A DNA stretch of 64,000 bases, from NCBI GenBank assembly GCA_002840365.1, contig PHAO01000001.1:239242-303241 (forward strand). Reading direction: 5' to 3'. The position numbers were made by a program, and so were the translations under genes. The notes under the pieces are model-generated. The model saw nothing but the letters and a program-made list of their open reading frames with translations, ran no database searches and was not told where the DNA came from. Positions 12,846-53,359 of this stretch are shown in pieces (position 1 is the first letter of the stretch; each line of letters opens with the position of its first letter). The DNA comes from Candidatus Dojkabacteria bacterium HGW-Dojkabacteria-1 (lineage in GTDB: Bacteria; Patescibacteriota; Dojkabacteria; SC72).

Positions 12846-12900
12846 TTTGTATTGAAAAATCTTTAATCTACTGGTATTATTGCGTGTTTAACACTAACGT

Positions 12901-12973
12901 GGGTGTATAGCTCAATTGGTAGAGCAAACGGCTCTTAACCGTTAGGTTCAGGGTTCGAGCCCCTGTACACCCA
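12901..12973 (+). tRNA. tRNA-Lys (anticodon CTT)
   Basis: Canonical 73-nt cloverleaf: GGGTGTA acceptor, AACGG/CCGTT anticodon stem, loop CTCTTAA, T-arm CAGGG-TTCGAGC-CCCTG. Confidence 0.85.
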
Positions 12974-13115
12974 TTTTTTTGATTTTCCATATCTCATACA
13001 GAATATCTTACATCGAGTGATCCTTTGGGGTTTTATGTTAATGATTTCCCTTTCTAGTTATTGTTTAAGCACAATCTTGTAGGATTTTTTACAGGTCTAT
13101 ATAATATAGTGTTCT

Positions 13116-13127
13116 TTAACAGGTCGA
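13116..13127. repeat. left arm of a 12-bp perfect inverted repeat TTAACAGGTCGA flanking the small ORF 13158..13367 (right arm at 13378..13389)
   Basis: Exact reverse-complement match 251 nt apart. Confidence 0.8.
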
Positions 13128-13157
13128 GAAAAAAGCTACAAAGAAGAGGAGTGTAAA

Positions 13158-13367
13158 ATGGGCGATAGAAAAGTTACAAGTGAAACGGTAAAAGGATCAG
13201 AAGTGTCAGGTGGTCCAGTTCGGTATGATAGGTCTGTAACTACCAATAAAGATGGTTCAACGCACTCAACAGAATCGGTAACTACGGAAAGAAGTAGTGG
13301 AAGATTTTCGTGGGATACTGATAAGAATGGTAAAGTTACCAAAGTTCATGGAAACATGAATAAGTGA
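13158..13367 (+). CDS. small hydrophilic Thr/Ser/Asp/Lys-rich protein (69 aa), GC-richer than its surroundings
   Basis: Strong RBS AGGAG 7 nt upstream of ATG; flanked by the 12-bp inverted repeat; composition differs from neighbouring genes. Confidence 0.45.
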   Translation: MGDRKVTSETVKGSEVSGGPVRYDRSVTTNKDGSTHSTESVTTERSSGRFSWDTDKNGKVTKVHGNMNK

Positions 13368-13377
13368 TTTGTAAAAA

Positions 13378-13389
13378 TCGACCTGTTAA
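13378..13389. repeat. right arm TCGACCTGTTAA of the inverted repeat pair
   Basis: Reverse complement of 13116..13127. Confidence 0.8.
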
Positions 13390-13460
13390 TGGTAAGGAGA
13401 GATCAAAATCTCAGTATAATCTCTCCTTACCAGTTTTATCTAAATTTTCAGGTTATTAAA

Positions 13461-13697
13461 ATGACTTTTACCCATAAAAAGGATGGGAATCTTCTTTACG
13501 AGATAGAAATCACTATTAAAGCTTATACTAAGATCTCAGAAAAGGATAAAAAAAGAATCAATAAGATTGCTCTATTAATTGATGCATTAGGTTTTGAAGA
13601 AGAGAGAACAGAAAAAGCATATAGATTTGTCAAAGAGATGGAGAAGAATGAATATCTATTGGATATTGAAGATTGTACTAAGGAACAAAGTGACTAG
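13461..13697 (+). CDS. hypothetical small protein; start chosen at MTFTHKK, though the ORF is open from 13389
   Basis: ORF only, no motifs; start ambiguous. Confidence 0.3.
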   Translation: MTFTHKKDGNLLYEIEITIKAYTKISEKDKKRINKIALLIDALGFEEERTEKAYRFVKEMEKNEYLLDIEDCTKEQSD

Positions 13698-13881
13698 TGA
13701 ATTTATACTCTCAAGATTTTGCAAATTGTTCGACTTCTGTTCCTGTACATCCACCATTTGATTCTTGTTATACTCGTATGTAGGTTGGTTGAGAGGTGGG
13801 GAAGCTCTCCTAGTTATCTTCTATAACTTGCGATGTGAAGCATCTATGGATTATGTCCTGAAGCGGTTCAAGTCCTACAAC

Positions 13882-14340
13882 CTACAACAAGCAATAACTC
13901 TTCCTATCTATATATTCCTGTTCTTCTTGAAGTAGTAGATATTTGTTCTCCTGTAATTCCTTATACAGTTCTCCTCTTGTATATTCCTTTATACTTAGTG
14001 GTACCTGTTCTTTAGTACTGTACCACTCTCCACTTTTCTCTAGATATTTCCAATCAGTATTCTCAGTATCAAATTCATAGATATATACCTTTTCACCAAG
14101 ATATTCATCCTTTATCTTCCTATCTACTTTTACAGTAATGATTTCTGAGTTATTTGTAGTACTAGATGAGAATGATGATATCCCACTAAATACTGCAAAT
14201 ATCTTAGCTTTTAATTCGATATCTGTTGCAAAGATTACACCTTTTGGAGTAGGAGTAGGAAATTTATGATAGTCATCTGGGTGAACAATTTGAGGTTCAA
14301 ATGGGTTTAAGTAAAATCTACTACCTTTATATATTTTCAT
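13882..14340 (-). CDS. hypothetical protein immediately downstream of, and probably co-transcribed with, the Elp3-like gene
   Basis: 152-aa ORF, 3-nt gap from 14343..15938 on the same strand. Confidence 0.45.
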   Translation of the reverse strand: MKIYKGSRFYLNPFEPQIVHPDDYHKFPTPTPKGVIFATDIELKAKIFAVFSGISSFSSSTTNNSEIITVKVDRKIKDEYLGEKVYIYEFDTENTDWKYLEKSGEWYSTKEQVPLSIKEYTRGELYKELQENKYLLLQEEQEYIDRKSYCLL

Positions 14341-14342
14341 TT

Positions 14343-15938
14343 CTATATATCTTTTATCATATACAATTCCATATCATCAAACCCTCTTTTTCTGTAATAT
14401 TCTTTTGTACCAATAGCTGATATTACAGAAAGCTTTTTGAATTTGTTTTTTCTAGAAATATTCTCTGCAATCTCTATCATCTTCTTACCTAATCCTAGGT
14501 GTTGTGATTCTCCAGAACTATCTTTACCAATATTTACTAAAGAGCCATATACATGTACTTCCCTTATCATTGCACTACTTTTTATCTCCTCTATGTATGA
14601 GTCTCTTTTTGGTAATGAGAGTCTGAGGAAGGAACATATTCTATCTGTTTTTTGGGTTTTGTAAGAAATGAAATACTCTGTTGAGACAGTAGTTTGGTAT
14701 TTAATAGTTTCTAGTTCTAAATCTTCCCACTTTATATCCTCATCCTTTATCTCTCTACTTCTAATATCTTGTATCTTTTTACCAACTCTCTCTATCTCTT
14801 CTTCTGCTATTTGTCTAAAGTTGGTACTTTTGTTTCCATCCACTATCTCATTAGAAGGAATATCCCTAACTATTCTTGTTAGTCTTGTATATCTTGGTGT
14901 CTTGGGTAATATTTCTACAAAGAGTTTAAGTAGCTCTTCTCTTGTATATGGTTTGTAGTTACCTTCTTTGTAATATTTCTCTAAAAGTGTATTTGCAATT
15001 ATTGATGTAGGATATATCTTAAGTTCATCTGGTATATATTCTTTCTTCCAAAGCCTATCATAGTCTTTTATATCTTCTTTTACACTTGAGCCATACAAAT
15101 TTGGCATCCAATGGGCATGTATTTTAAAACCTGCCAACCGAAGTAATTCGAAAGCCTTCTTCGTTTCTTTTGTACTGTGTCCTCTTCTATTTGATTCTAA
15201 GATATTGTCATTGAGACTCTGTATCCCTATCTGTATCTTTGTTGCACCAAGTTTTCTTAATCTAATTACTTCCTCTTCCGTTATGTAATCTGGTCTTGTT
15301 TCTAATACTAGTCCTACATTTCTACATACAGTTGTTTCATTTATTCCTTGTGCTTTATACAATTCTTCCCAAGATATTTTCTCTGTACCCGTATCTTTCT
15401 CATACTTTGTATTACCAAAGCTATTCATTCCATCGAAACATCTTTTTACAAACCAAATTATGTACTGTTCAGGATAGAAGGAGCAAGTACCACCAAGTAT
15501 AATGAGTTCTATTTTATCTGTGTTATGTCCAATGTTTTGTAATGCCTTTATACGATTGTATGTTTGGTAGTAGGGGTCAAACTCATTCTTTAATGCTCTC
15601 TGTGCTCCTGGCTCACTAGCTATATATGACTTTGGCATTCTTACATCACTTGGACAGAATATACATTGCCCAGGGCATGCAAAGGGTTTCATAAGGACTG
15701 TTACTGTTGCTACACCAGATTGAGTTCTAGTTGGTTTCATCCTTATTCTTTCTTCTATTATTTTGTTTACTTCTATTTCTTTCTTTTTGAGTAATGTTTT
15801 GTATGCTTCTACTAGTTCATCATGTCTGTAAAGCCCTTTTCCCTCTTTTGGATATTTCTTAAGTATGGTTTGAAGGGAGTTTTCTCTCCATGTTTTAGTA
15901 TTTTGTATTTGTTCAAATATTTCTTTGAAATTTTGCAT
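14343..15938 (-). CDS. Elp3-like radical SAM / GNAT acetyltransferase (elongator protein 3 homologue; putative tRNA U34 modification enzyme)
   Basis: CPGQCIFCP (CxxxCxxC radical-SAM cluster) near the N-terminus after an Elp3-like leader; C-terminal HLGLGKKMIE ... YYRKRGF GNAT-like motif; 531 aa matches Elp3 size. Confidence 0.75.
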   Translation of the reverse strand: MQNFKEIFEQIQNTKTWRENSLQTILKKYPKEGKGLYRHDELVEAYKTLLKKKEIEVNKIIEERIRMKPTRTQSGVATVTVLMKPFACPGQCIFCPSDVRMPKSYIASEPGAQRALKNEFDPYYQTYNRIKALQNIGHNTDKIELIILGGTCSFYPEQYIIWFVKRCFDGMNSFGNTKYEKDTGTEKISWEELYKAQGINETTVCRNVGLVLETRPDYITEEEVIRLRKLGATKIQIGIQSLNDNILESNRRGHSTKETKKAFELLRLAGFKIHAHWMPNLYGSSVKEDIKDYDRLWKKEYIPDELKIYPTSIIANTLLEKYYKEGNYKPYTREELLKLFVEILPKTPRYTRLTRIVRDIPSNEIVDGNKSTNFRQIAEEEIERVGKKIQDIRSREIKDEDIKWEDLELETIKYQTTVSTEYFISYKTQKTDRICSFLRLSLPKRDSYIEEIKSSAMIREVHVYGSLVNIGKDSSGESQHLGLGKKMIEIAENISRKNKFKKLSVISAIGTKEYYRKRGFDDMELYMIKDI

Positions 15939-15995: not shown

Positions 15996-16013
15996 AGTAG
16001 ACTAGGGTCTACT
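15996..16013. repeat. near-palindrome AGTAGACTAGGGTCTACT overlapping the TAG stop (minus strand) of the flavoprotein gene; second copy of the 10103 element
   Basis: 7-bp arms AGTAGAC/GTCTACT with a 4-nt spacer; complementary CCCTAGTCTA lies at 15958..15967. Confidence 0.75.
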
Positions 16014-17228
16014 TCTTGCGGCAGTAATTCCTGTACTCCAACATATTTGTAAGTTGTATCCTCCTGTTGGGCCATAGACATCTATTATCTCTCCTGCAAA
16101 GTAGAGGTTATCTATGAGTTTGGATTTCATAGTTTTAGGATCTATTTCCTTTATACTTACTCCTCCACTAGTTACGATTGCCTTGTCCCAGCTTTCTAGT
16201 CCTGATACTGTTAATTTGAAATCCTTAAGTAAGTCTATTATGGTATTCCTTTGTTCCCTGTTTATATCACATGCTTGAGTTGAGGGGGGTATTTGAGAAA
16301 GATCTACAACGATGGGGATTAGAGAAGATGGAAGGTAGCTTTTAAGTAGGGTTCTTAAGTTTTTTCTACCACTTTCTTTTAAATCATGTTGCAACCTTTT
16401 GTCTAATTCTTCCTTTGGTATTGCTGGTTTAAAATCTATACTGATATTTACTTCCCCTTTTTCAAGTGCATCTCCAATCTCTCTAGACATATCAATCACT
16501 ATCGGACCACTTAATCCTTCGTGTGTGAAAAGGGCTTCTCCAAATTTACTACATACCTTTTTCTCATTTTGATATGCAGAAATAGTAACGTATTTAAGAG
16601 ATAGTCCTGCTAATTCTTTTACATATTTTTCTTTACAAAGTATTGGTACTAGAGCTGGTTTAAGCTCTGTAATTGTATGCCCTATTTCTTTTGCTAGAGT
16701 ATATCCATCTCCATTTGATCCTGTTACTGGGTATGTTTTTCCTCCTGTTGCAAGAATATATTTTTTTGCTTTGAAGTCTCCCTTGTATGTAGTTACCGAT
16801 GAGATTGTATTTCCATCCATATTGAATTTCATTACTGAAGTATTTGGTAATATGTTTTCTCCTACCTGTTCAGTTAATGCATATATGATGTCTACAGCCT
16901 TATCACTTTTAGGAAATACTCTTTTTCCTCTTTCTACCTTTAAGGGTATCTTAAGTATATCTTTGAAATATTTCATAGTATCTTCTACTGAAAATCTTGA
17001 AAAAGCTCCGTAGAGAAATTTTCCATTTCTTTGATATTTGGAGACTAAATCATCAAGATTTGTATTATGGTTTGTTACATTACATCTTCCTTTACCAGTA
17101 ATTACTAACTTTTTCCCTGGTCTCGGATTTCTTTCTATGATTAAGAATGATTGTCCTAATCTTTTACACTCAACTCCTGCGATGAGTCCTGCTGCTCCCC
17201 CTCCAATTATTATTGTGTCATATGTCAT
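16002..17228 (-). CDS. HI0933/BaiN-family FAD-dependent oxidoreductase
   Basis: N-terminal YDTIIIGGGAAGLIAG Rossmann dinucleotide fold and KGRCNVTN, typical of the HI0933 family. Confidence 0.75.
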   Translation of the reverse strand: MTYDTIIIGGGAAGLIAGVECKRLGQSFLIIERNPRPGKKLVITGKGRCNVTNHNTNLDDLVSKYQRNGKFLYGAFSRFSVEDTMKYFKDILKIPLKVERGKRVFPKSDKAVDIIYALTEQVGENILPNTSVMKFNMDGNTISSVTTYKGDFKAKKYILATGGKTYPVTGSNGDGYTLAKEIGHTITELKPALVPILCKEKYVKELAGLSLKYVTISAYQNEKKVCSKFGEALFTHEGLSGPIVIDMSREIGDALEKGEVNISIDFKPAIPKEELDKRLQHDLKESGRKNLRTLLKSYLPSSLIPIVVDLSQIPPSTQACDINREQRNTIIDLLKDFKLTVSGLESWDKAIVTSGGVSIKEIDPKTMKSKLIDNLYFAGEIIDVYGPTGGYNLQICWSTGITAARSRP

Positions 17229-21641: not shown

Positions 21642-24600
21642 TTATGTTCTTGCTATCTTAAGATTTCTGTTAATCAATTTTCTTCCCTTAGTTGATATTT
21701 CTGTTTTACCTTCTACAATCTTTATACCACTATCTGTTGTTTCTATAATATATTCTCCTTTCTCTGAGATATCAAATGAGTATCTCCCTTCCGAGTCTGT
21801 AACTCTTTTTGCTACTACCTTATCAAAATCTTTGTCCTTAAGTATGAGTATGATATTTACAGCGGGTGTACCATTTTCATAAAGAACTTTTCCTGTTTTT
21901 CTTCTCATACCAATAATGCTTTTTACAAGAACATATGTGGTTGGAATGTAAAGTAGTAATATCGCTAGGTTTTGTGTAATTGGATTCTTTGAGTATACAT
22001 ATGAAGCTATTGTAATACCTCCAAGGAAGAGAATTAGGTTTATGATTGGTAGTATAGATGAAGCAAAACTTCTGAAGAGAGTAAATGCTTTCTTTTGTAT
22101 TGCTTTCTGATCTGGGTCTATGGGGATTACAACATTTATTTCATTTTCCTTAAGCAGTATCTTTTCTCCGTGGTATACATTGGAAAGTGGGTAATCTTCC
22201 TTTCCAAGTATTAGTTTAGATGGGAAGTCATAGTTTCTTCCTTTCACTTCAAGTATATATTCTCCGGTAGGGATGTCTGTTCTAAAGAGTCCATACCCAT
22301 CTGTTACTGCAGTATCAACAAGTTTTTTCTCAAGATCATATATTCTAACAATTGCTTGCTGTATTGGTGCTCTTGTAATTGAATCATATACATATCCAGC
22401 AGGGTATCTCTTTCTTCTAAACCCTATTGAGCTTAGGATGTTGATAAAGATTTGTGACATAGCATATCCTACCTGTCCAAGGTTTCCTAAGATTGATGCT
22501 AATCCTACTGAAACAGTAACTGCAGTAGCAGTAGCTGATACCGTAGTGAGTCTTTCTTTTTCTATATTTCCCAGTGGTGAGCTATCAAGTAAATTGAATG
22601 TTGTAGTTACTACTCCCTCTACTGCATTAGAGATGTTGTCCCTTATTCTTCCTGTTGTTGGTATTACTGCTGGTTTCTCATACAGTTCTCCCTGTGCACC
22701 TGTTCCTCTTAGTCCATCTGCTATCCAATATGTTACTCCTGATATACTTGCTTGAGATACTGTTACATCATTTCCTTCGACTTTTAGCTTTTGAGGGAAG
22801 TTTCCTGTATACAGGACTGCTTTGTTACAATCAACTTTTATTTCTTCTAAGCTTCTTGCTTCTGGACATATTCTAAATGCGTTGTCTGAATCCTTTTTAA
22901 CTACATACATAGTATACTTATCTGTTAATCCATGTGTAGTATTAAGCTTCACAACAGTCTTACCTTGTTGTGGAGAAGTTTGAATAATTGCATTACTCCA
23001 GTCTCTGTTGTTCTCAAATGATATTGGTAAGTCAGCTACAACAAAATCTTCAGTTAAGATTCTTACTGTTTGAACACCTGTTTGTGCTCCTTCAACATTA
23101 CTTACATCAATATTTCTGTTGTCTACAAGTATAGTACTTATGTTTTCAGGCTTGTTAAGAATAATGGAGAATGTTTTACCTGTATTACTTTCTACAAATG
23201 CAGTTTCTACATTTGCATTGTTAATAGCCTTAACTCTAAATGCATATTGGGCTCCAGGTTCAAGAGATCTAATTGTTAAACCGGTATTTCCTCCCCATGA
23301 TGAATGCGTTCCCCAAACGACATTGTCTACAAGTTGCATGGTTGTATAGTCAAGATATTTTCCAGTGTTACTTTCCTGTATTGCAAATCTTGTAGTAGTG
23401 GGGTTTCCATTTCTGTCGAATCTTATCCTACCTGTACTTCCTCCTACGGTTTCAAAGATTAGGTCTCTTGGAAGGTTGGCCCATGTGGTAGCAGAAATTG
23501 TTTCAGAGAATCCTGAGAACAAATTATCTGAGTTAACGCTTCTTACTCTAAAGGTATATGTTGTATTTGGTGGAAGATTTGCTAATGTGAAGTTACTGTT
23601 TACTCTTGTATCATCATGTATTACTGTTGCAGTTGTAAATCTGTTTTCGTTATCAATATTTCCATTTGTTACTGCTTCAACCAATTGATATCTTGTATTT
23701 GCAGGATTAAGATTCTTGTCTACAGTTAATTCTATTGAACTTCCACTAATTACTCTTGCTCTTACACTTGGTACTCTTGAGAAGGTATGTGCACTTATTG
23801 ATTGGGAACAATCTGTTTCAAGATTTTGAGAGTTTCTTGCTCTTACACAGAATGTATATCTTGTATTGGCTTCTAGGTTTTGAATATTTACTCCACTGTT
23901 ACTACCGAAATCTTGTAAGGATCTCCATACAGGTTGTGTATCGAATACTCTTGTTGATGGATTCACATTCTGATTACGATTTACTTCCATTAATCTGTAT
24001 GTAGTAGAGGTGTTGTTACTGTTAGCATTAATCACTACAGACATTGTAGTTGTATCAATTGCTGTTACAGAGGTAATAGCTGGTTGGTAAGAAAGAGTAA
24101 TGATACTTACTTCATTACCATATTCTGTCTCTATGGAGTCATCATTAAGGGCTTTTACTCTGAAGGTATATTCTGTATTTGGTAATAGTCCATATACGGT
24201 TATTCCATTATTTGAGCCCAACTGTATATATGTTGCATAGTAGGGTGAGTCCTGAAGTAATTGAGAGTTAGTATTAAGATATTTCCCAGAGATTTTTTCT
24301 TGTAGAAGATATCTAGTAGTAGAAGGATTATTATTTGTATTTACAGTTAAGTCAACACTGTCAGCAGTATATTTTCCTGCTGTAATATTTTGTAATGATG
24401 GTACATTTGCAAACGTTATTGCAGAAACCACATTACTAAATGTACTCTCTGCAATACTGTTGTATATTTTCATTTTCCTTGAGTAAGAGGTATTAGGTTG
24501 CAGGTTGTTTTCTGTACAGCTAAGTATTTCTGTCCCAAGACAGGTTTTAATTAATACTCCATTTTCGTTATACAACTTAATACCTAATATACTGTCTGTA

Positions 24601-27600
24601 TATTCAGATATTCTCCATGTTATTTGACTACTTGAATCAACAACTGGAGCTATTGCTGTGATTGGTGAGAGTAGGGTAGTAGCAGAGGATGTTCCAGAGA
24701 AGTCCGTTTCAACATTTTCTCCATTTCTTGCTTTAACCTTGAAAGTGTATGTTGTTCCTGAATTTAACCCTATTACACTAAATGGTGTTAAATCTGCATT
24801 GTTCTCTCCCCAGAATGGAGTTGCTTGTAATTCTCCTGTTGTTAAATTTAGATATTTGCCTGTAAATGTTTCTTGTATTAGAAGCTCAGTATATTCTGGA
24901 TTTGCTCCATTCAGTACTCTTAGAGATATTGTTGAATTACTTGTAGCATATACATCTGTAAGACTTGGTGTTGTTGCGAGTGTATATGTAGAAATTTGGG
25001 TTGAATAAAGGGTTTCTTGTCCATCGAAGTTTCTTGCTTTTACTCTGAATGTGTACTGTGTATTTGGTTGTAATCCTATTGCTACATCTGATGTACTTTT
25101 AATCCACTCCCTTATTCCCGAATCACATCCTGTTTCTATACATTCAAAGAAGAGTCCAGAATCTCCTGTTGAGAGATTGTTTACTCCAGTTGCATTAAGA
25201 GATACAGAGGTAGTAGAGAGTGGGCCTGCAGAGAGAGTCGGTACACTTGCTTGAGTATATATGGTTATTGTATCTGAATATTCTGTTTCAACATTATCTC
25301 CATTTCTAGCTTTTACCTTAAATGTATATGGTGTGTTGTTTGAGAGTCCTGTTACGGTAGGATTATTGTCTAGTGTCCATACATTAATATTTGTATCGCA
25401 ACTACCCTCGCAATCAAAGTACAGTTCTCCACCATTTACTGGTTGTGTTGCTGTGAGAGATATTGAAGTATCTGTCTTAACTCCAGAATATTGTATTGTT
25501 GGAACAGATACTAATGTATATGCACTTGCGCTGTTTGAGGGAGAGCTTTCTGCTTCATTGTTAAATACGATTGCGTATCTTGTATATTGTGTATTTTCAG
25601 AGAGATTCTCTTCATCACAATATGTTAGATTTTGACCTACACAAGTTACTTTAAGAATGTCATTTTCATCATACAGCATTATTCCTTCCTCTCCACTTGC
25701 ATTATCAACGAATTCCCAACGCATTGATGTGGTCGTAAGTGGTGTTCCTTTAAACTCTGTTACAGTGTTTGGTACATCAAGCATTTTAAAAGTAGCTGTT
25801 GAGGACCAAGGGCTTTCTGTACCAGGTGTATCTATGAATCTTATCCTCCAAAAGTATGTTACTCCGTTTAGTGAAAGAGCTACTCCTTCATATTGAATTG
25901 GTATTGATCTTAAGCCATTCTCAATCCGGTCACTTCCTAAAAGCGCTATATATCCACTATCCCACATAGTTGTACCTGTAAAGGAAGAATTTGTATTTAC
26001 TTGGACTTGATAATGAGTTCCAAGATCTGAAGGATCAGAATCAGTAAAGACTGCACTAAACTGAGGCTGTAATGTTGTTACTTGGGTTGGATTTGTTTGA
26101 TTGTTTGTTTCAAGTGAAGATGGTGCATTAGGTGTAGAATTCATCTTGAAGGTATTTGTTGACGACCAACCACTAACAGATCCATTTACATCCCATACTC
26201 TCATTCTCCAGTAATATGTAGTACCATCAAGTGTCAAAGTATTTCCTTGGTATGTTATATTTGGAGTTCTTGTATTGTTTGCAGTTGTGGCCATAGAGGT
26301 CTCACCACTATCCCACATAGTTGTACCTGTAAAGGAAGAATTTGTATTTACTTGTATCTGATACTTGTTACCACTGTCACCATCAGGGTCTGTAAACAAA
26401 GCGCTGAAATTAGGTTGTGTGTTTGTAATAGAGGTTGGATTTACTAATCCTTCCGTTTGTAGTTGTGTTGGGGCGCTTGCAGGAGTATTCATCCTGAAAG
26501 ATGCTGCAGAGGACCATGCCCCTTCTGCACCTTTGTTATCCCAGTATTTTATTCTCCAGTAATATGTAACTCCATTCAAAGTGAGATTAGATTGTCCATA
26601 TGTAATATTTGGTCCTCTTGTTCCTCTTGTTACTGCAGAGATATTTATTTTTCCACTATCCCACATCGTAGTACCATTAAACGCTGATGTTGTATTTACT
26701 TGTAATTGATATGACACCCCTGTATCTCCAGTATCTGGATCATTGAAAATTGCACTGAAAATAGGGTTCATTGTTGTTACTCTCGTAGGATTTGTAGCAT
26801 CATTTGTTGTAAGGCTTGTAGGTGCTGTTGGAGGTGCGTTGTAAGTCTCCTCCGCGCTTTGGGAGACATTTACAGATGCTTTTCTTTGAGCAAAAATGGT
26901 TGTTATGTATGGTGGGAGTGCTTGTACTGCGGATGTTGTCGCTGTACAGCTATGAGTATGTGTATCATGCACGAAGGCTGAACCTGAAACCCTATATATT
27001 CCCTGAGAACTTGCACTCTGTCCTCCCGTTGTAACACTTATACTGTGGGTGTGTGTTGCTCCTGCGTATGAAGAACCTGCTGTTACAGCTCCAAGTGGAA
27101 ATTTTCCATCAAGAGCGGAAAATCTTGTCCAGCCGTATGGTGGAAGAGCTGTTGTCATTTCAATAATGCCGTTACTGGCATATGTTAAGGTAGAAGCCTG
27201 TCCATATGTTACTGAATAATATGGAATGTTATTATTTCCTGCTGTAGTAGTGGTACTGTTCGTCGTATGGAAGTGGTTTGCCGCAGCACTTGTACTACTG
27301 TGGGCGTCCTTACTATCCCTAGAATTGTTTGTTCCAGTATTGTATCCACCCGTGGCACTATGTGTATGTGTTGCAGATCCCCCACTTGCTACAAACCCAT
27401 TTCCACCCTTTGGATATCTTCCTGTGAGAGTTGAATAGTAAGTGAAATTAGCAGCTAGAGTTGTTGAGTTTGTATTAAACATTGCAATGGTATTTGCTGG
27501 ATGTGAGAGAGAAGTGTTTGAACAGTAGTATAGTTGGGTGAATGGGGGGTCAATCGTTGTATCTGTTACATTTACGGTTGCTCCTGTATGAGTATGATTA

Positions 27601-28253
27601 GCTAGCTGTGCAGTAGTGTTGGGAGAATCATCGTCAGCACCATTATGGAAAGTTCCAATTGCTGTTCCAGTTGTACAACTTGCAGTTCCATGATTATGGG
27701 TACCATTGGAACTTGTGCCATAGGAGGAGGAACCATATGGAAATTTCCCATCATATACACTTTCTCTAGTCCATCCACTTGGGCATGATGCAGAAGAAAG
27801 GACAAGGAATTTCCCACTCCAGGATGCTTGTCCACTTGTTGCGGAAGGGTTTGAATAGTAGAGATAAATTGTCTTACCTGCTGCAGGAAGACTTGGAATT
27901 CTGACCCAAACTTGTGTAGTTGTTGTATTACATCCTCCCTCTATCCAGTATGCAAGTAATGTCGTGTCATTACTATCAACAAATCGTAAGTCATTACAAT
28001 TAGATTGTAATTTTCCACTTGATATTAATGTTGATGTATTTACCACTACTAAAACATCTTCGTTTGTAAGGTCGGAACCTGTACCACTAACTGTTAATGT
28101 TCTTCTATTTGCCCAACTACTGTTATACCAGCCCCTTACCTCTTGTACATTCGTACTCATTACAAATATAGCCGTGATTAAACCAGTAAGACTAAGAAGT
28201 GCAATTACAAATATCAATATTTTCCTAAGTTTCTTTTTCTTGGCAGTTTTCAC
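21642..28253 (-). CDS. giant (2203 aa) cell-surface protein: N-terminal DUF2341/LamG-like domain, His/Thr-rich HTH-repeat region, about ten tandem Fn3 domains, C-terminal carboxypeptidase-regulatory-like domain and TM anchors
   Basis: N-terminal TM/signal; LRFVDSNDTTLLAYWIEGG ... VWVRIPSLPAAGKTIYLYYSN (DUF2341-like); repeated ATHTHS/HDTHTHS motifs; repeated TYYWRI(K/R) ... WSS and YTF(K/R)VKARN ... ETEYS Fn3 units with about 100-aa period; C-terminal GFRRKRYPAGYVYDSITRAPIQQAIVRI module. Confidence 0.85.
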   Translation of the reverse strand: MKTAKKKKLRKILIFVIALLSLTGLITAIFVMSTNVQEVRGWYNSSWANRRTLTVSGTGSDLTNEDVLVVVNTSTLISSGKLQSNCNDLRFVDSNDTTLLAYWIEGGCNTTTTQVWVRIPSLPAAGKTIYLYYSNPSATSGQASWSGKFLVLSSASCPSGWTRESVYDGKFPYGSSSYGTSSNGTHNHGTASCTTGTAIGTFHNGADDDSPNTTAQLANHTHTGATVNVTDTTIDPPFTQLYYCSNTSLSHPANTIAMFNTNSTTLAANFTYYSTLTGRYPKGGNGFVASGGSATHTHSATGGYNTGTNNSRDSKDAHSSTSAAANHFHTTNSTTTTAGNNNIPYYSVTYGQASTLTYASNGIIEMTTALPPYGWTRFSALDGKFPLGAVTAGSSYAGATHTHSISVTTGGQSASSQGIYRVSGSAFVHDTHTHSCTATTSAVQALPPYITTIFAQRKASVNVSQSAEETYNAPPTAPTSLTTNDATNPTRVTTMNPIFSAIFNDPDTGDTGVSYQLQVNTTSAFNGTTMWDSGKINISAVTRGTRGPNITYGQSNLTLNGVTYYWRIKYWDNKGAEGAWSSAASFRMNTPASAPTQLQTEGLVNPTSITNTQPNFSALFTDPDGDSGNKYQIQVNTNSSFTGTTMWDSGETSMATTANNTRTPNITYQGNTLTLDGTTYYWRMRVWDVNGSVSGWSSTNTFKMNSTPNAPSSLETNNQTNPTQVTTLQPQFSAVFTDSDPSDLGTHYQVQVNTNSSFTGTTMWDSGYIALLGSDRIENGLRSIPIQYEGVALSLNGVTYFWRIRFIDTPGTESPWSSTATFKMLDVPNTVTEFKGTPLTTTSMRWEFVDNASGEEGIMLYDENDILKVTCVGQNLTYCDEENLSENTQYTRYAIVFNNEAESSPSNSASAYTLVSVPTIQYSGVKTDTSISLTATQPVNGGELYFDCEGSCDTNINVWTLDNNPTVTGLSNNTPYTFKVKARNGDNVETEYSDTITIYTQASVPTLSAGPLSTTSVSLNATGVNNLSTGDSGLFFECIETGCDSGIREWIKSTSDVAIGLQPNTQYTFRVKARNFDGQETLYSTQISTYTLATTPSLTDVYATSNSTISLRVLNGANPEYTELLIQETFTGKYLNLTTGELQATPFWGENNADLTPFSVIGLNSGTTYTFKVKARNGENVETDFSGTSSATTLLSPITAIAPVVDSSSQITWRISEYTDSILGIKLYNENGVLIKTCLGTEILSCTENNLQPNTSYSRKMKIYNSIAESTFSNVVSAITFANVPSLQNITAGKYTADSVDLTVNTNNNPSTTRYLLQEKISGKYLNTNSQLLQDSPYYATYIQLGSNNGITVYGLLPNTEYTFRVKALNDDSIETEYGNEVSIITLSYQPAITSVTAIDTTTMSVVINANSNNTSTTYRLMEVNRNQNVNPSTRVFDTQPVWRSLQDFGSNSGVNIQNLEANTRYTFCVRARNSQNLETDCSQSISAHTFSRVPSVRARVISGSSIELTVDKNLNPANTRYQLVEAVTNGNIDNENRFTTATVIHDDTRVNSNFTLANLPPNTTYTFRVRSVNSDNLFSGFSETISATTWANLPRDLIFETVGGSTGRIRFDRNGNPTTTRFAIQESNTGKYLDYTTMQLVDNVVWGTHSSWGGNTGLTIRSLEPGAQYAFRVKAINNANVETAFVESNTGKTFSIILNKPENISTILVDNRNIDVSNVEGAQTGVQTVRILTEDFVVADLPISFENNRDWSNAIIQTSPQQGKTVVKLNTTHGLTDKYTMYVVKKDSDNAFRICPEARSLEEIKVDCNKAVLYTGNFPQKLKVEGNDVTVSQASISGVTYWIADGLRGTGAQGELYEKPAVIPTTGRIRDNISNAVEGVVTTTFNLLDSSPLGNIEKERLTTVSATATAVTVSVGLASILGNLGQVGYAMSQIFINILSSIGFRRKRYPAGYVYDSITRAPIQQAIVRIYDLEKKLVDTAVTDGYGLFRTDIPTGEYILEVKGRNYDFPSKLILGKEDYPLSNVYHGEKILLKENEINVVIPIDPDQKAIQKKAFTLFRSFASSILPIINLILFLGGITIASYVYSKNPITQNLAILLLYIPTTYVLVKSIIGMRRKTGKVLYENGTPAVNIILILKDKDFDKVVAKRVTDSEGRYSFDISEKGEYIIETTDSGIKIVEGKTEISTKGRKLINRNLKIART

Positions 28254-28352
28254 TATTAATATTTAATCAAAATGTGAATCAACAAGCAACAATTTTAATT
28301 TCAAAAAGAACTAAGTTGCATTAAATACTTTTCTTTGGTCTAATTTTAAGAC

Positions 28353-43472: not shown

Positions 43473-44054
43473 TTATTCAAAACTTTTAAAAATTTCTTTG
43501 TAAAAGGAAAATTTTGAAGAAACATTATTATTTAAAACCTCTAGAGTGTGCCCAAGCATCTGATAATTAACAGAGAGTATCGCATCCTCACTTAATAAAG
43601 GATAATCCTTCTTTAAGTTTGTCCAATCAAGAGATTCTGCATTTACATGGCTAAAACTATGAGTGATTTTTACTACCTTATTGTAGTATTCTTTTGAAAA
43701 TCCAACCTCTAACATTCTCTCCCCAAGGTTACTTTTTGTCCATCTCTTCCCGAATCCAAAATCATCTTTGGAGATATCTACGAGATATTCCTTTATTCTC
43801 GTTTCAAAATTTTTATTTAAAATCCATTTTAAATTTACGGTATTTTCTATTAAAGATCTTAGTAAGATGGCTGCTTCCTGAGTAAAATTCTTCTCACATA
43901 ATAAAAGAATTGCCCCAGTAATATGAAATGAATTATAAGAGAGGCTGTGGATTAAAATATTTTTAGGAGTTTTTTCATAATTTCTTCCGATTTCGTCGAA
44001 GACAGAGTCCGTTTTTTTAATAGTATCAACAATTACACTTCTATATTGTCTCAT
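43473..44054 (-). CDS. hypothetical protein immediately downstream of the Type IIG RM gene (overlapping stop/start)
   Basis: 193-aa ORF overlapping the RM gene end by 14 nt; no motifs. Confidence 0.45.
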   Translation of the reverse strand: MRQYRSVIVDTIKKTDSVFDEIGRNYEKTPKNILIHSLSYNSFHITGAILLLCEKNFTQEAAILLRSLIENTVNLKWILNKNFETRIKEYLVDISKDDFGFGKRWTKSNLGERMLEVGFSKEYYNKVVKITHSFSHVNAESLDWTNLKKDYPLLSEDAILSVNYQMLGHTLEVLNNNVSSKFSFYKEIFKSFE

Positions 44055-47000
44055 TTTTTATATTTTTATCAATTTCTTTCATAATCCTATCTGTTTTTTC
44101 TAGAATTACTATTATTTTTTGATAATGCTCTATGTCTATGTTAGTTAATTCTATTCCTCTTCTATCCTTTAACCATTTTTGTGCAGGCTGATAACCACCT
44201 ATATAGAAATTCCATGCAATTTCAGACACATTTCCAAAGTATTGGGTATCATTAATATAGACATTGCTGTTTTTGTATCTTATTTTTTCTACAACATCAG
44301 ATCCACTAATAGGATATGTAGTTATATATTTATTAATTTTTGATGATTCCATTAAATGTAATTCTCTTAGTTTTGTTCCTATCTTTACTAATTTCTTAAA
44401 AGATTCTTTGTCTTTAGGGTATGGTACTCTAGGAAAATCTATCTTTAAGAATTCTTTGTATTTCTCCCTATATTTAGGACTATGTAATACTGCATATATA
44501 TAATCAAAGATATCTTCTGGTGTAGTTTTACCAACTATTTCCTCTATTTTTTTCACTATTTCGGTATTCAAGTTTGGTGTTTTAGTACCATCGTCGGAAT
44601 AGAGGTAGAGTGGGAAGACATAGCTATTATCTAATGGGGAGCAAATAGCCTTATCAGTTATATCCTTTGTCACAAAGTAACAATGAAATGGGCTTCGGTC
44701 TCTTTTTGTGCTATTTAGAACGAAATTAGGCTTTTCGAGAATATGTTTCATAACTGCATGTCGAGGATTGAAAACAATGTTCTTATGATAATAAATAAAT
44801 CTGTTATCAAAAATCCTGTAAGAGTATGTCTTAATCAAATCTTCCCTATATGTTTTTCCTCCTTTTCTTGTGTCAGATAATTTCCAAAGAGCGTTGTCTT
44901 GGAGTGAATATTTTGATTTAATTTCTTCATCTGTTAGGTTAGGATCATAGAAGTCTTTAATCTTTTTCTCTAAGTTATTTTTGTTTGTATTTACAGCATA
45001 ATTGTCCTTTGCGGTAGTAATACCCATACTGTGAACTTTAAAAAATTCTTGCAATGAAATTCCTCTGTTATATTCATTTATATTTTCATAATTTTTTTCC
45101 TCAAAGAAGTAGTAAGGTTCTTGATACTTTATTTGTAGAAAAGGAGTAGATCCAATTTTGAGTGAATTTAACTCTCTTAATTTCTTTTCTCTAGTTCCCC
45201 AGATATCATATCTAAATATTTTTCCTAATTCATTAGATTTTTTCTTGTTTGTTTTTATACCAATAAATATTGCTACTCCAGGTTGAATATCAAAAACATT
45301 TTCATCTTTACTTCCATCTGGACTAATATCTTTTGTCTTTGTATTTCCATGCAAATCTATTATGTAGATTTTGTCAAAGGTTTTAAGTAAACTCCATCTC
45401 ATACCCCTAAAGGTGGGATTTTCTAAGTAACCATGGTTTGTTATGAAGGCAACAATTCCAGAATTATTCTTTTCAATGAAATTCTCTGCTAAGCCAAAAA
45501 ATTTTACATAATCATCATTTAGCCAATGTTTTTTTTCTTTTAATTTCTCATCTCCTCCTGGCTCAACTTTGTATTTATTAATTATACTCTTCGCATAAGG
45601 AGTTTCGTTTGAGGAAACTCCGCTATAAGGAGGATTTCCTATTACCACCATAACGGAAGTGTTTCTCTTAATCTTTTCTGCTTCCTTAGATTCTTCGGTA
45701 ATACTTTCTGCAAAACCAAAAGAAAATAGACCTTCTTGTTTAATCCCTTGTTCTAAGGCATTTGTTAAATAAATACCTAATCTTTTATTAAAATGTATAA
45801 AGCCAGTCTTTTTAAATGCAATACTTAGCTTAAGGTGAGCTATGGTATATGGAGCCATCATTAATTCAAAAGCATGAATACGAGGTAAAAGATCATGATG
45901 AACATATGAAGGCCACCGGCCTTTTTGACCAGAATCTAAAATATTTTTATAAATGAGGTTTATAACTGCACTAATAAAAGTCCCTGTTCCAGTGGCAGGA
46001 TCCAATACTTGAACAGTATGTTTTCCATCTGCAGATTTTGAAGTATCTGCTAAACCATTGTGAAGATTAAAATCTTTTTTGAGAATGGTATCTACTGAAG
46101 TCACGATGAAATTCACAACGGGGAGGGGTGTATAGTATGCCCCCATTCTTTTTCTTAAAGCAGGATCATACTCTTGAAGGAAGTCTTCGTAAAAATGTAT
46201 CACAGGATCTTTACCATCTTTTTTTTCAAAGTATTCCTCAAGTAGATTTTTTACATCAGCATGAGAGAAAATTTGGCAAAGTTCATCTACAATATATTCC
46301 AATCTTTTATCGAAATTAGGTCCTGCTATATGATCGAAAAAATGCATTAGTAAGGGATTGGATTGGGGTACTAAATCTCTTGCTTCCTGCCTTGTAAAAC
46401 GATCTTGAGATTCATCGTTATATCTTGCTGCGAATAAGCCGTAGACCAATGTCTGGGCATACATATCCGCAAAAGATTCTACAGTTAGATCGCTTACTAA
46501 AAGTTTCTTAATCATTTCATAGACTCTCGCAATTTCTGTTCCTTCTTTTAAGAATTCTTTAACATTATCTCTTATTCTTTGTGCTTTCCCCGCCATTATT
46601 TTTGAGAGGTGAGCTCCCGATTTAATTGGTTCTTTGTATGATTTTGAGAAATCAACGAGCGTCTTTTCTAAAAGGACATAGTTATCGGGGATAGAAGATA
46701 TTGTTTTTGTTTTTTTATCGACATTTCCAATTTTAATAGGTTCCTGATATAAAAGACCATTTCTGTAAAAGCGAAATTCTAGATAATCAGTTAATACAAG
46801 ATTTGCATATCCATAGTACCTAGCCATTTGCTCAGATTTTTCTATCTTGTCTAAAGATACTCCTAAATCCTTTGTTTCCATGTATAAGATAGGGATTTCC
46901 CCATTAAAAATAACAAAGTCTGGTTTATTTTTATCCTCGGTTTTAGCCTCTTGCCTTATTTTTCTTACTTCAATTCGATTAAAAATTTCCTGTAGTAGAT

Positions 47001-47094
47001 TCTGTATTGGTGTTCTATATGAATACTCTGTTCCTTTTTCACTTTTGTATATTTCAGATATGGAAGAAAGATATTTTTCGAAGGTTTGTTGCAT
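44041..47094 (-). CDS. Type IIG/IIL-like restriction-modification enzyme: N-terminal PD-(D/E)xK nuclease fused to a gamma-class N6-adenine DNA methyltransferase and a C-terminal target-recognition region
   Basis: KPDFVIF-x11-ETKD (PD ... ExK); motif I VLDPATGTGTF; motif IV VIGNPPYSG; 1017 aa; AT-rich relative to flanks. Confidence 0.8.
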   Translation of the reverse strand: MQQTFEKYLSSISEIYKSEKGTEYSYRTPIQNLLQEIFNRIEVRKIRQEAKTEDKNKPDFVIFNGEIPILYMETKDLGVSLDKIEKSEQMARYYGYANLVLTDYLEFRFYRNGLLYQEPIKIGNVDKKTKTISSIPDNYVLLEKTLVDFSKSYKEPIKSGAHLSKIMAGKAQRIRDNVKEFLKEGTEIARVYEMIKKLLVSDLTVESFADMYAQTLVYGLFAARYNDESQDRFTRQEARDLVPQSNPLLMHFFDHIAGPNFDKRLEYIVDELCQIFSHADVKNLLEEYFEKKDGKDPVIHFYEDFLQEYDPALRKRMGAYYTPLPVVNFIVTSVDTILKKDFNLHNGLADTSKSADGKHTVQVLDPATGTGTFISAVINLIYKNILDSGQKGRWPSYVHHDLLPRIHAFELMMAPYTIAHLKLSIAFKKTGFIHFNKRLGIYLTNALEQGIKQEGLFSFGFAESITEESKEAEKIKRNTSVMVVIGNPPYSGVSSNETPYAKSIINKYKVEPGGDEKLKEKKHWLNDDYVKFFGLAENFIEKNNSGIVAFITNHGYLENPTFRGMRWSLLKTFDKIYIIDLHGNTKTKDISPDGSKDENVFDIQPGVAIFIGIKTNKKKSNELGKIFRYDIWGTREKKLRELNSLKIGSTPFLQIKYQEPYYFFEEKNYENINEYNRGISLQEFFKVHSMGITTAKDNYAVNTNKNNLEKKIKDFYDPNLTDEEIKSKYSLQDNALWKLSDTRKGGKTYREDLIKTYSYRIFDNRFIYYHKNIVFNPRHAVMKHILEKPNFVLNSTKRDRSPFHCYFVTKDITDKAICSPLDNSYVFPLYLYSDDGTKTPNLNTEIVKKIEEIVGKTTPEDIFDYIYAVLHSPKYREKYKEFLKIDFPRVPYPKDKESFKKLVKIGTKLRELHLMESSKINKYITTYPISGSDVVEKIRYKNSNVYINDTQYFGNVSEIAWNFYIGGYQPAQKWLKDRRGIELTNIDIEHYQKIIVILEKTDRIMKEIDKNIKNETI

Positions 47095-47172
47095 TAACTT
47101 TTGTTAGAATTGTTAAGTTAGCTTATAGAATTTTACATTTTCTTAGTTTTTATAACAAGGGAAGAAAAGTAG

Positions 47173-49612: not shown

Positions 49613-50704
49613 ATGAAAAGATTTAGATTAACTAACAATAACTGGGACGAAGCAATTAAAGAAGCAGTAAAGGTACTAAATGAAGGTGGGCTTGTAGTAT
49701 ATCCTACAGAAACCTGTTATGGTATTGCTGTAGATGCTACTAATGAGAGAGCATTAAGTAAGCTTCTCTCATACAAAACATTCAGAGGTTCCAAACCTAT
49801 CTCAGTAGCTGTAGCTAATAGAGAGATGGCAGAAAGGTATGTAGAAATAAATGAAATGGCAGAAAATATATACAAGAACTACTTACCAGGACCAATAACT
49901 GTGGTATCAATGAGTAAAGGAGTTCTTAAACCACCAGTTGTTTCTAAGCAAGATTCTACCGGTATTAGAATACCAGATTACAAATTTACACTTAAGTTGA
50001 TTGAATCTTTTGGAAGACCAATTACTGCGACCTCTGCAAATGTATCTTACAAACCACATCCATACAGTATTGATCAATTGATAAAGGATTTACCTAAGAA
50101 AAGTGAATCCCTTATTGATCTATTCTTAGATGATGGAGAACTACCAAAAAATGTACCATCTACAATATTAGATACCACTATGAATACTCTTACTGTACTA
50201 AGGGAAGGAAAGCTAAAATTTGAAGATGCAATTTTACAAAGTACTCTTTTGGAAGAGAAAATAACTAAGAAACCTGAACATACAAGTGATATGGGAGAGT
50301 CCTTTACTAAGGAATACCTAAAGGATTTAGAAGGTAGTGTTGTAATTGCATTAAGTGGAGAGCTAGGTGCTGGTAAAACTCAATTCACAAAAGGTATTGG
50401 AGTAGGACTTGGGGTAGAAGAGCTAGTTAATTCACCTACATATACAATCATAAATGAGTATGAATATGGTAGTAAGGTATTAGCACATATGGACACATGG
50501 AGACTCATGGATGAGGATGATTTAAACAGGTCTGGACTAATTGAGCATTTGGAGAAGGGTAACATTGTAGTAATAGAGTGGGCAGACAAATTCTACCAAG
50601 AGCTGGAAGGGATATGTCGCCAAAAAAACATCCCTATGTACAAAGTAACATTTAAATATATTTCACTTAAAGAAAGAGAGATAAAGATATATGGTACTAA
50701 CTAA
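49613..50704 (+). CDS. fusion of TsaC/Sua5 (YrdC domain, threonylcarbamoyl-AMP synthase) with the TsaE (YjeE) P-loop ATPase
   Basis: N-terminal VVYPTETCYGIAVDATNERA (YrdC); C-terminal ALSGELGAGKTQFTKGI (TsaE Walker A). Confidence 0.75.
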   Translation: MKRFRLTNNNWDEAIKEAVKVLNEGGLVVYPTETCYGIAVDATNERALSKLLSYKTFRGSKPISVAVANREMAERYVEINEMAENIYKNYLPGPITVVSMSKGVLKPPVVSKQDSTGIRIPDYKFTLKLIESFGRPITATSANVSYKPHPYSIDQLIKDLPKKSESLIDLFLDDGELPKNVPSTILDTTMNTLTVLREGKLKFEDAILQSTLLEEKITKKPEHTSDMGESFTKEYLKDLEGSVVIALSGELGAGKTQFTKGIGVGLGVEELVNSPTYTIINEYEYGSKVLAHMDTWRLMDEDDLNRSGLIEHLEKGNIVVIEWADKFYQELEGICRQKNIPMYKVTFKYISLKEREIKIYGTN

Positions 50705-51779
50705 GGAAATATTAAAAGAGAAACCATTAATACTTGCAATAGATACAAGTTGCGATGATACCTCTGTTGCACTACTTAGAGGGAGAGAGGTATTAAATAG
50801 TGAGCTTTCATCTCAGATAGAGTTACATTCTGAATTTGGGGGTGTAGTTCCTGATTTAGCAAGGAGATTACATGAGGAGAATATTGAAGAGGTTTACAAC
50901 AAAGCATTAAACAACAATCCAGGGATGATAAATAATGTGGATTACATAGCTGTAACAACTGGTCCTGGATTAGCCATAGACTTAGAAGTAGGTCTTAAGT
51001 TCGCAAAGGATTTGGCAGATAGGTATAACAAGCCTTTTGTTCCTGTTAATCATATGGAAGGGCATCTTTTTTCATCTTTACTTCTTAATTCAAAAGGTAA
51101 TGGGTTAGTAAGTGATGAGGAATTAGTAGATGCATTTCCTGCAATTGCCCTCCTTATGTCCGGAAAGCATACCGAGATAGTGTATGTAGAGAGTATTGGG
51201 GAGTACAAGAAGCTTGGTCAAACATTAGATGATGCAGCAGGAGAGGCGTTTGATAAAGTGGGTAGAGTTTTAAACTTAGGATATCCTGGTGGTCCTGTTG
51301 TAACAGAGTTTGCAAAGAGAGGAAAAAGTGGAGTAATTAAGTTTACTACTCCAATGAAGAACTCTGGAGATTTAAACTTCAGCTATTCAGGTCTTAAAAC
51401 TGCAGCATTGTACAAGTCAAAAGAATTAAGAGAAAAGGGTATTCCTGAGAGAGAATGGATATATGATTTCTGTAGAGGATTTTTAGATGCTGTAGTTGAT
51501 TCTGTAGTTATTAAATTGCAGTTAGCTATAGAGAAACATCCAGAGGTAAAAACTGTATTTGTAGGAGGAGGAGTGTTTAATAGTGAAGAGATACTTAGAA
51601 AGGTTGGTAATACTGTTAGGTCTTACAATCTTAATTACTACTTTCCAGAGATAGAGTACAGAAGTGATAACGCAGCTATGATTGGTGTTAGTGCATATTT
51701 AAATATACTTCAGGGGAAGTATATTACAGACAAAGATGAGATAGAGGAGATTGATAGAGATCCTAGACTTTCACTTTGA
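50691..51779 (+). CDS. tsaD: tRNA N6-adenosine threonylcarbamoyltransferase TsaD (Kae1/Gcp family)
   Basis: LAIDTSCDDTSVAL N-terminal motif and PVNHMEGHLF metal-binding motif. Confidence 0.85.
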   Translation: MVLTKEILKEKPLILAIDTSCDDTSVALLRGREVLNSELSSQIELHSEFGGVVPDLARRLHEENIEEVYNKALNNNPGMINNVDYIAVTTGPGLAIDLEVGLKFAKDLADRYNKPFVPVNHMEGHLFSSLLLNSKGNGLVSDEELVDAFPAIALLMSGKHTEIVYVESIGEYKKLGQTLDDAAGEAFDKVGRVLNLGYPGGPVVTEFAKRGKSGVIKFTTPMKNSGDLNFSYSGLKTAALYKSKELREKGIPEREWIYDFCRGFLDAVVDSVVIKLQLAIEKHPEVKTVFVGGGVFNSEEILRKVGNTVRSYNLNYYFPEIEYRSDNAAMIGVSAYLNILQGKYITDKDEIEEIDRDPRLSL

Positions 51780-51823: not shown

Positions 51824-51896
51824 GCGCTGGTGGGGAAGTTGGTATCCCGTTGGATTTTAAATCCAAAGCTCGAAGGTTCAAGTCCTTCCCAGCGCG
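51824..51896 (+). tRNA. canonical 73-nt tRNA cloverleaf with anticodon TTA (reads UAA/UAG); suppressor-type tRNA with Gln-like features (discriminator G73, UUUUAAA loop)
   Basis: Acceptor GCGCTGG/CCAGCGC, D-arm GGGA-AGTTGGTA-TCCC, anticodon stem TTGGA/TCCAA with loop TTTTAAA, variable AGCTC, T-arm GAAGG-TTCAAGT-CCTTC; all arm lengths canonical. Confidence 0.55.
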
Positions 51897-51903
51897 CCTT
51901 AAG

Positions 51904-53241: not shown

Positions 53242-53359
53242 TTCATTTCTCTTAGCAATTTATTACTTGATTGTTGCACAAAGTAGTTTAGTAGGCAAGA
53301 AAAACCCATAGTAGGTGTTTAGATGGTATAATACGGGACTAAAATATTATGATTTCTAA

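Follow-up and report, generated by a model that had tools for sequence, protein, structure and literature searches.

A probable stand-alone Elp3 and a lineage-restricted ADP-ribosyltransferase-fold neighbour in Candidatus Dojkabacteria

We analysed a 64,000-nucleotide (nt) stretch of DNA (the window) from Candidatus Dojkabacteria bacterium HGW-Dojkabacteria-1 (assembly GCA_002840365.1, contig PHAO01000001.1, positions 239,242 to 303,241), concentrating on a gene for a 531-amino-acid (aa) Elp3 protein and the 152-aa open reading frame (ORF) that follows it, here called p152. Taken as a whole, the evidence makes it probable that the first gene encodes a functional stand-alone Elp3 and that p152 is a lineage-restricted accessory protein with the ADP-ribosyltransferase (ART) fold, not a dedicated partner of Elp3. 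The two consecutive ORFs of 531 and 152 aa described in the original prediction, which was made from the sequence without database searches, were both confirmed, on the minus strand of the window. The gap between them, given there as 3 nt, is in fact 2 nt: between the TAG that ends Elp3 and the ATG that opens p152 stand only the two bases AA. Simple scans placed no promoter-like or terminator-like site between the two genes. Because only 2 nt separate them and no such site lies between, Elp3 and p152 are probably co-transcribed here.

The 531-aa protein matched TIGR01211 (ELP3) at 491.7 bits (cut-off 350), with residues 9-530 lying on model positions 4-521 of 522, and it also matched both Radical_SAM and Radical_SAM_C of Pfam. 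The runner-up radical S-adenosylmethionine (SAM) models, MnmL/YtqA (61 bits), RaSEA (52) and HemW (40), were all far under their own cut-offs; the protein does not group with HemW-like or other radical-SAM families, the outcome that had been named as fatal to the assignment. The radical-SAM CxxxCxxC motif is present as C88-PGQ-C92-IF-C95. So is the C-terminal GNAT/KAT region, with QHLGLG at residues 479-484 and an alignment with the KAT domains of solved Elp3 structures that extends to residue 530, and the Pfam GNAT match there is weak (Acetyltransf_10, E 0.0012, under its cut-off). With a full-length family match and the catalytic motifs in place, the predicted assignment to Elp3 is right. 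The finding is not a new one: an identical sequence, PKN02663.1 of the same organism, already stands under the name Elp3 at NCBI and UniProt ('tRNA uridine(34) ... radical SAM/GNAT enzyme Elp3' in the record).

The closest solved structures to the 531-aa protein are all Elp3, from archaea, bacteria and eukaryotes. Alignment to the archaeal and Dehalococcoides enzymes, suggested earlier as a check, bore out the assignment: MinElp3 (Methanocaldococcus infernus, PDB 6IA8/6IAZ; E 6e-97 to 6iaz) and DmcElp3 (Dehalococcoides mccartyi, PDB 5L7J; E 1e-84) share its radical SAM and KAT architecture from end to end. Elp3 of the eukaryotic Elongator (PDB 8PTX, 8AVG, 6QK7) is homologous across residues 57-529, with E values of about 1e-80 to 1e-83; the Elongator scaffold of Elp1, Elp2 and Elp4-6 is not expected for the window Elp3. 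The cysteine spacing is Cx3Cx2C in the window Elp3 and DmcElp3, whereas it is Cx4Cx2C in MinElp3 and Cx9Cx2C in eukaryotic Elp3. QHLGLG aligns with QHMGYG of MinElp3 and QHRGLG of DmcElp3. The tunnel and active-site residues E213 (in LETRPD), K307 and Y309 (in LKIYP) align with E207, K302 and Y304 of MinElp3, which line the tunnel and have been shown to be essential (PMC13315578).

Two further regions were compared. The N-terminus of the window Elp3 is extended and basic, as in archaea, with 16 Lys or Arg among the first 70 residues, and resembles the long basic N-terminus of MinElp3; the extension is required by MinElp3 for tRNA binding, whereas DmcElp3 has none (PMC6367351). The linker is reported to have a conserved Zn-binding cysteine triad in bacteria and archaea, which eukaryotes lack (PMC6367351). 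The triad was not found here: the window Elp3 has IQDIRS at the site where MinElp3 and DmcElp3 have CRCIRC. The full triad is lacking in the window Elp3 and in eukaryotic Elp3 alike. Because eukaryotic Elp3 also does without it, the triad does not define the family. Among 84 aligned bacterial Elp3 homologues, the Zn-cysteine pattern CxCxxC is kept in only 15 and lost in about 67 (loci L001 and L006-L089; L numbers denote the loci compared in this study).

By homology, the 531-aa gene would encode a functional stand-alone Elp3, that is, a synthase of 5-carboxymethyluridine (cm5U) at tRNA position U34. The radical-SAM domain would cleave SAM reductively and the KAT domain would hydrolyse acetyl-CoA. 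The resulting acetate/acetyl radical would then be added to C5 of the wobble U34 of tRNAs, giving cm5U.

Elp3 has been described in the literature from only a few bacteria (PMC7663514, PMC6367351), and the original prediction said likewise. The statement fits the literature but not the genome data. In a scan of one genome per GTDB species, at least 574 relatives were confirmed; the best 80 of these, at 45% identity or more over nearly the full length, are all from bacterial metagenome-assembled genomes of many phyla. As named in the records, they include Dojkabacteria, other Patescibacteria, Anaerolineae, Thermoanaerobaculia, other Acidobacteria, Polyangiaceae, Limisphaerales, Geobacter and Pseudomonadales. 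The Cys triad of the radical-SAM motif is kept in all of the 84 aligned bacterial homologues and QHxGxG in 83, the remaining row (L026) being masked (X) at this place. Bacterial Elp3 is not rare, and the rarity claim is out of date. Reviews still treat it as a curiosity of Dehalococcoides, while genomes place it across Patescibacteria and several other phyla; a literature search found no paper joining Elp3 with the candidate phyla radiation.

The second ORF is a real gene, as indicated by length-conserved homologues at 53-93% identity and by a confident structure model (mean pLDDT 89.3). Its exact sequence is PKN02662.1, 'hypothetical protein'; both protein records belong to a 734-kb contig. 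The homologues at this level of identity fall into 7 clusters (word-indexed search of 5.8 billion proteins), and when 1.84 billion cluster representatives were searched exhaustively with HMMER, the family had only 19 hits at E<=1e-3. One protein in the representative library, P0013 (1870 aa), had 9 separate matches to the centre of the p152 profile (positions 51-108), which suggests either a repeat built from part of the p152 fold or a compositional artefact.

The original prediction had raised the idea that p152 could be a dedicated partner of Elp3 and had named conservation of the pair in other genomes as a check. In the Dojkabacteria clade of the window, 22 species-representative loci were informative, with enough sequence downstream. 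p152 comes directly after Elp3 in one of them (L010); in four others (L011, L013, L016 and L017) it is 1-2.4 kb distant, and one or two unrelated genes intervene. Elp3 is kept and p152 is absent in the other 17 loci, including L041, whose Elp3 is 80% identical to that of the window, and L020; in these two, tRNA-Lys lies about 20-70 nt after Elp3. Further metagenome contigs with p152 adjoining Elp3 are L001-L007 and L097, and in L096 a DUF5680 gene lies between the two. Relatives of p152 without Elp3 were seen in L009, in L090-L094 and in one JGI contig; in L009, p152 stands directly against tRNA-Lys and RecO, and the 4.9 kb upstream contain no Elp3. In other organisms, the distant homologues P0024, P0010 and P0021 follow a UDG gene or have unrelated genes around them, never Elp3, and no p152 homologue occurs within 4 kb of Elp3 in about 50 Elp3 loci outside the clade. 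The pairing is thus confined to a few close Dojkabacteria and is broken by insertions or loss. These results indicate that p152 is a lineage-restricted accessory gene and not a dedicated Elp3 partner.

The surroundings of p152 are themselves variable. The gene order in the clade is TrpRS, UDG, NDK, (HI0933-like), Elp3, a variable stretch, tRNA-Lys(CUU), a gene for a 687-aa surface protein, and RecO. Of 25 related loci, 19 have tRNA-Lys next to the gene for the 687-aa surface protein; in L009 it stands beside RecO. The interval between Elp3 and the 687-aa gene ranges from about 140 bp without any gene (L020, L041 and L033) to 3.6 kb with unrelated genes; in other species the variable stretch is occupied by DUF5680, DUF2726, a NUDIX-wHTH protein, DUF4153, DUF4352 and members of a membrane-protein family. 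Given these varied and unrelated occupants, p152 is one of a number of genes that interchangeably fill a flexible spot bordering Elp3.

Across the window and loci L001-L096, the variable stretch holds 0 to 5 genes; in Dojkabacteria it is a hotspot where genes turn over. Neither an integrase nor a significant att repeat was found in it. A 12-nt repeat of the tRNA-Lys 3' end (12962-12973 and 13742-13753, 11 of 12 positions identical) was considered as an att remnant and rejected: its local-alignment score of 19 compares with a shuffled mean of 18.8, and 145 of 300 shuffles reached it. A tRNA-like 3' fragment seen by eye downstream of p152 (about 13790-13880) was likewise dropped, as Rfam at E<=1 found nothing there.

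The AlphaFold2 model of p152 has an ART core fold. Among its top fold matches, 33 of 37 are ART-fold proteins by the reading of entry titles; they include OspC3, pertussis toxin S1, heat-labile enterotoxin A, CARDS, ArtA, the rifampin ADP-ribosyltransferase Arr and diphtheria-type toxins, with AcrF11, PARP15, DarT, scabin, MbcT, RES toxins and tankyrase also represented. An earlier, low-confidence model gave the same ART theme, and a Foldseek search against viral structures returned only two unnamed proteins. The ART signature triad consists of His or Arg in strand 1, Tyr or Ser-Thr-Ser in strand 2, and a catalytic Glu, Asp or Gln in strand 5. In 24 diverse p152 members the sole invariant columns are G6, A38 and E105: G6 lies in [YF]-[RKHC]-G-[ST] on strand 1 of the model, A38 in [FWY]-A-[ST] on strand 2 before a helix, and E105 in E-[WYF] on a later strand. 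In place and order, these presumably correspond to the three ART signature motifs ('HGS', 'YFA' and 'NEY' in PARP). The mapping follows the order of secondary-structure elements and the known ART motifs; on this basis the invariant residues would map onto the signature motifs, with E105 at the position of the catalytic Glu, and the key residues of p152 are likely K5-G6, A38-T39 and E105.

At the level of sequence, p152 belongs to no named family. The window protein had no significant match in Pfam, NCBIfam, PADLOC or PHROGs (only scattered PHROGs matches at E>0.004), no Pfam family reached its gathering threshold, and the family profile found nothing among PDB sequences at E<=10. No sequence-profile similarity was detected between p152 and any named ART family (Tpt1/KptA, Arr, pertussis/cholera-type toxins, DarT and RES toxins). 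The nearest Pfam entry was DUF6886 (PF21820), to which 8 of the 24 members gave colinear sub-threshold matches (best E 0.0012); P0021, for instance, scored 18.4 bits over profile positions 20-140 of 164, against a gathering score of 27 bits. All family matches were below that score, the window p152 itself had none, and a literature search found no paper naming DUF6886. p152 also has neither an RNA-binding lobe like that of Tpt1 nor an antitoxin partner or delivery domain. It is a new, very small, sporadic and unannotated family within a known fold class. Most likely, p152 is a stand-alone ART-fold protein, predicted to bind NAD+ and to transfer ADP-ribose or carry out a related NAD+-dependent reaction; with its invariant Glu and ART fold, it is a candidate for a new NAD+-dependent activity.

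Bacterial Elp3 does have a conserved neighbour, and it is another gene. All ORFs flanking Elp3 in 80 loci were clustered, and a family profile was then applied. The family that recurs across phyla is a class I SAM methyltransferase of about 250 aa, encoded divergently and directly upstream of Elp3. Outside the window's clade, 49 loci were informative (those with enough upstream sequence), and 43 of them have the gene, usually less than 100 nt from the Elp3 start; examples among L028-L088 are L087:3093-3851 and L085:3227-3979, both on the strand opposite Elp3. Its best solved relative is Trm9 of Yarrowia lipolytica, a tRNA mcm5U34 methyltransferase (5CM2; E 5e-15, profile positions 26-231 against chain residues 3-186). 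The match to Trm9 is nearly full length, whereas other methyltransferases match in the Rossmann core only. No NCBIfam model reached its cut-off for the family. Its members share a conserved N-terminal FY..A..F..TR..PW motif and an HH motif, which we take to resemble those of Trm9/ALKBH8.

Within the window's clade, about 30 loci were compared and none has this Trm9-like gene beside Elp3; no homologue was found within the 64-kb window either. The conserved neighbour of bacterial Elp3 is a divergent Trm9-like methyltransferase, a different gene than p152, and is missing in this lineage. Clustering of Elp3 with Trm9 has been reported for the archaeon Sulfolobus (PMC6144793). The pairing in 43 of 49 loci suggests that many bacteria have a complete mcm5U pathway of the archaeal/eukaryotic type (Elp3 and Trm9).

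Several other readings of p152 were weighed. As an accessory subunit dedicated to the stand-alone bacterial Elp3 and made from the same operon, it could serve in tRNA binding, electron delivery or a follow-up step. The 2-nt gap, the shared strand and the lack of a promoter-like or terminator-like site between the genes agree with this, as does the same tight arrangement in L010, L006/L007, L001-L005 and L097, where Elp3 shares 55-92% identity with that of the window. However, Elp3 is kept without p152 in the 17 sister-species loci, unrelated genes, some on the opposite strand, separate the two in L011, L013, L016, L017 and L096, p152 of L009 has no Elp3 nearby, distant family members never stand beside Elp3, and outside the clade no homologue lies within 4 kb of it. 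The idea is largely refuted by synteny, and we consider it very unlikely. p152 could instead be an ART-type toxin of a toxin-antitoxin or polymorphic-toxin system (like DarT, ParT/RES, MbcT or Tre) with a neighbouring immunity gene; its fold resembles many ART toxins, and it has a patchy distribution and a variable genomic location. Yet the adjacent antitoxin or immunity gene that is conserved in DarTG, ParST, MbcTA and RES-Xre was not seen: no small gene consistently adjoins p152 on the same strand, and its neighbours vary (Elp3, a 296-aa membrane protein, an opposite-strand DUF5680 gene, UDG or none). p152 further matched no PADLOC defence model, had no relative on IMG/VR viral contigs and carries no signal sequence or delivery domain. 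A toxin is thus improbable.

The points that tell against a lineage-restricted, NAD+-dependent accessory protein concern its first motif and its spacing from Elp3. In this clade the first-motif residue of p152 is Lys, and in one member Cys, where characterised members of the ART superfamily have Arg or His; because of this replacement some members, possibly including that of the window, may be catalytically inactive. The same substitution, together with the lack of profile-level similarity to any active ART family, is what would be expected if p152 keeps the fold without being an enzyme, as a module binding NAD+, ADP-ribose or nucleic acid or as a degenerate member. On the other side, E105, mapped to the catalytic Glu position, is invariant in 24 of 24 members, and G6 and A38-[ST] are invariant too, as expected of a preserved active site; we regard the non-enzymatic alternative as rather unlikely. 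The tight 2-nt spacing recurs in at least four lineages, in which p152 is 53-93% identical to that of the window, and leaves room for a lineage-specific functional link between the two genes. One such link would be recruitment of p152 as an NAD+-dependent enzyme acting on tRNA or on Elp3, by Tpt1-like RNA chemistry or by an ADP-ribosylation that regulates wobble-uridine modification, in a lineage where the Trm9-like gene is missing. If true, it would explain the recurrent 2-nt coupling and the position beside a tRNA gene, but we hold it to be very unlikely indeed. A lineage-restricted ART-fold accessory protein beside a functional Elp3 remains the reading that we prefer. Overall, the locus is ordinary, with one mildly interesting orphan gene (p152), and the proposed new partner is unsupported.

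The positions of the features discussed are collected in the table below.

Table. Features of the Elp3 locus, in window coordinates
Feature	Positions	Strand	Basis
Elp3 gene, 531 aa	14343..15938	-	ORF list and TIGR01211 match
p152 gene, 152 aa, ART fold	13882..14340	-	ORF, homologues and structure model
Gene for HI0933-like FAD flavoprotein, directly upstream of Elp3	16002..17228	-	TIGR00275 (438.8 bits) and PF03486
tRNA-Lys(CUU), conserved anchor bounding the variable stretch (with p152) on the side away from Elp3	12900..12974	+	ARAGORN and Rfam (73.6 bits)
Variable stretch, from tRNA-Lys to the 3' end of Elp3	12975..14342	no strand	comparison with related genomes
Small ORFs in the variable stretch, besides p152	13158-13367 and 13389-13697	+	ORF list
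Radical-SAM [4Fe-4S] motif CPGQCIFC, C88/C92/C95 of Elp3	15654..15677	-	translation
Acetyl-CoA-binding motif QHLGLG of the KAT/GNAT domain, Elp3 residues 479-484	14487..14504	-	translation
IQDIRS at the Zn-cysteine linker site, Elp3 residues 389-394	14757-14774	-	alignment to solved Elp3

The HI0933-like flavoprotein gene and Elp3 lie on the same strand with a gap of 63 nt. At least 16 related loci have a gene of this family upstream of Elp3, and in L014, L018 and L023 its end overlaps the start of Elp3, which gives an operon-like look. It is not upstream of Elp3 in some relatives, including the closest one, L010. The flavoprotein might supply electrons to the radical-SAM cluster, or it might be unrelated to Elp3.

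Elsewhere in the window, a well-formed 75-nt class I tRNA (51824-51898, plus strand; Rfam 68.8 bits) has the anticodon loop UUUUAAA and the discriminator G73. Its anticodon UUA would read the stop codon UAA. The gene lies between tsaD (50685-51779) and enolase (51964-53259), in core chromosome and not in a prophage. TAA is the commonest stop codon among the 49 long ORFs of the window (29, with TAG in 18 and TGA in 2). A search of metagenome contigs with an exact 23-mer of this tRNA found nothing, and the matches to an 18-mer of its anticodon arm were, in the 80 loci fetched, either unrelated sequences or, on the opposite strand, three tRNA-Leu(UAA) genes. The window also encodes, on the minus strand, a Type ISP restriction-modification enzyme (Type_ISP_C and N6_Mtase; 44041-47103) and a surface protein of 2206 aa (21642-28262) that contains fibronectin-type-III (fn3), Ig-like and CarboxypepD_reg domains.

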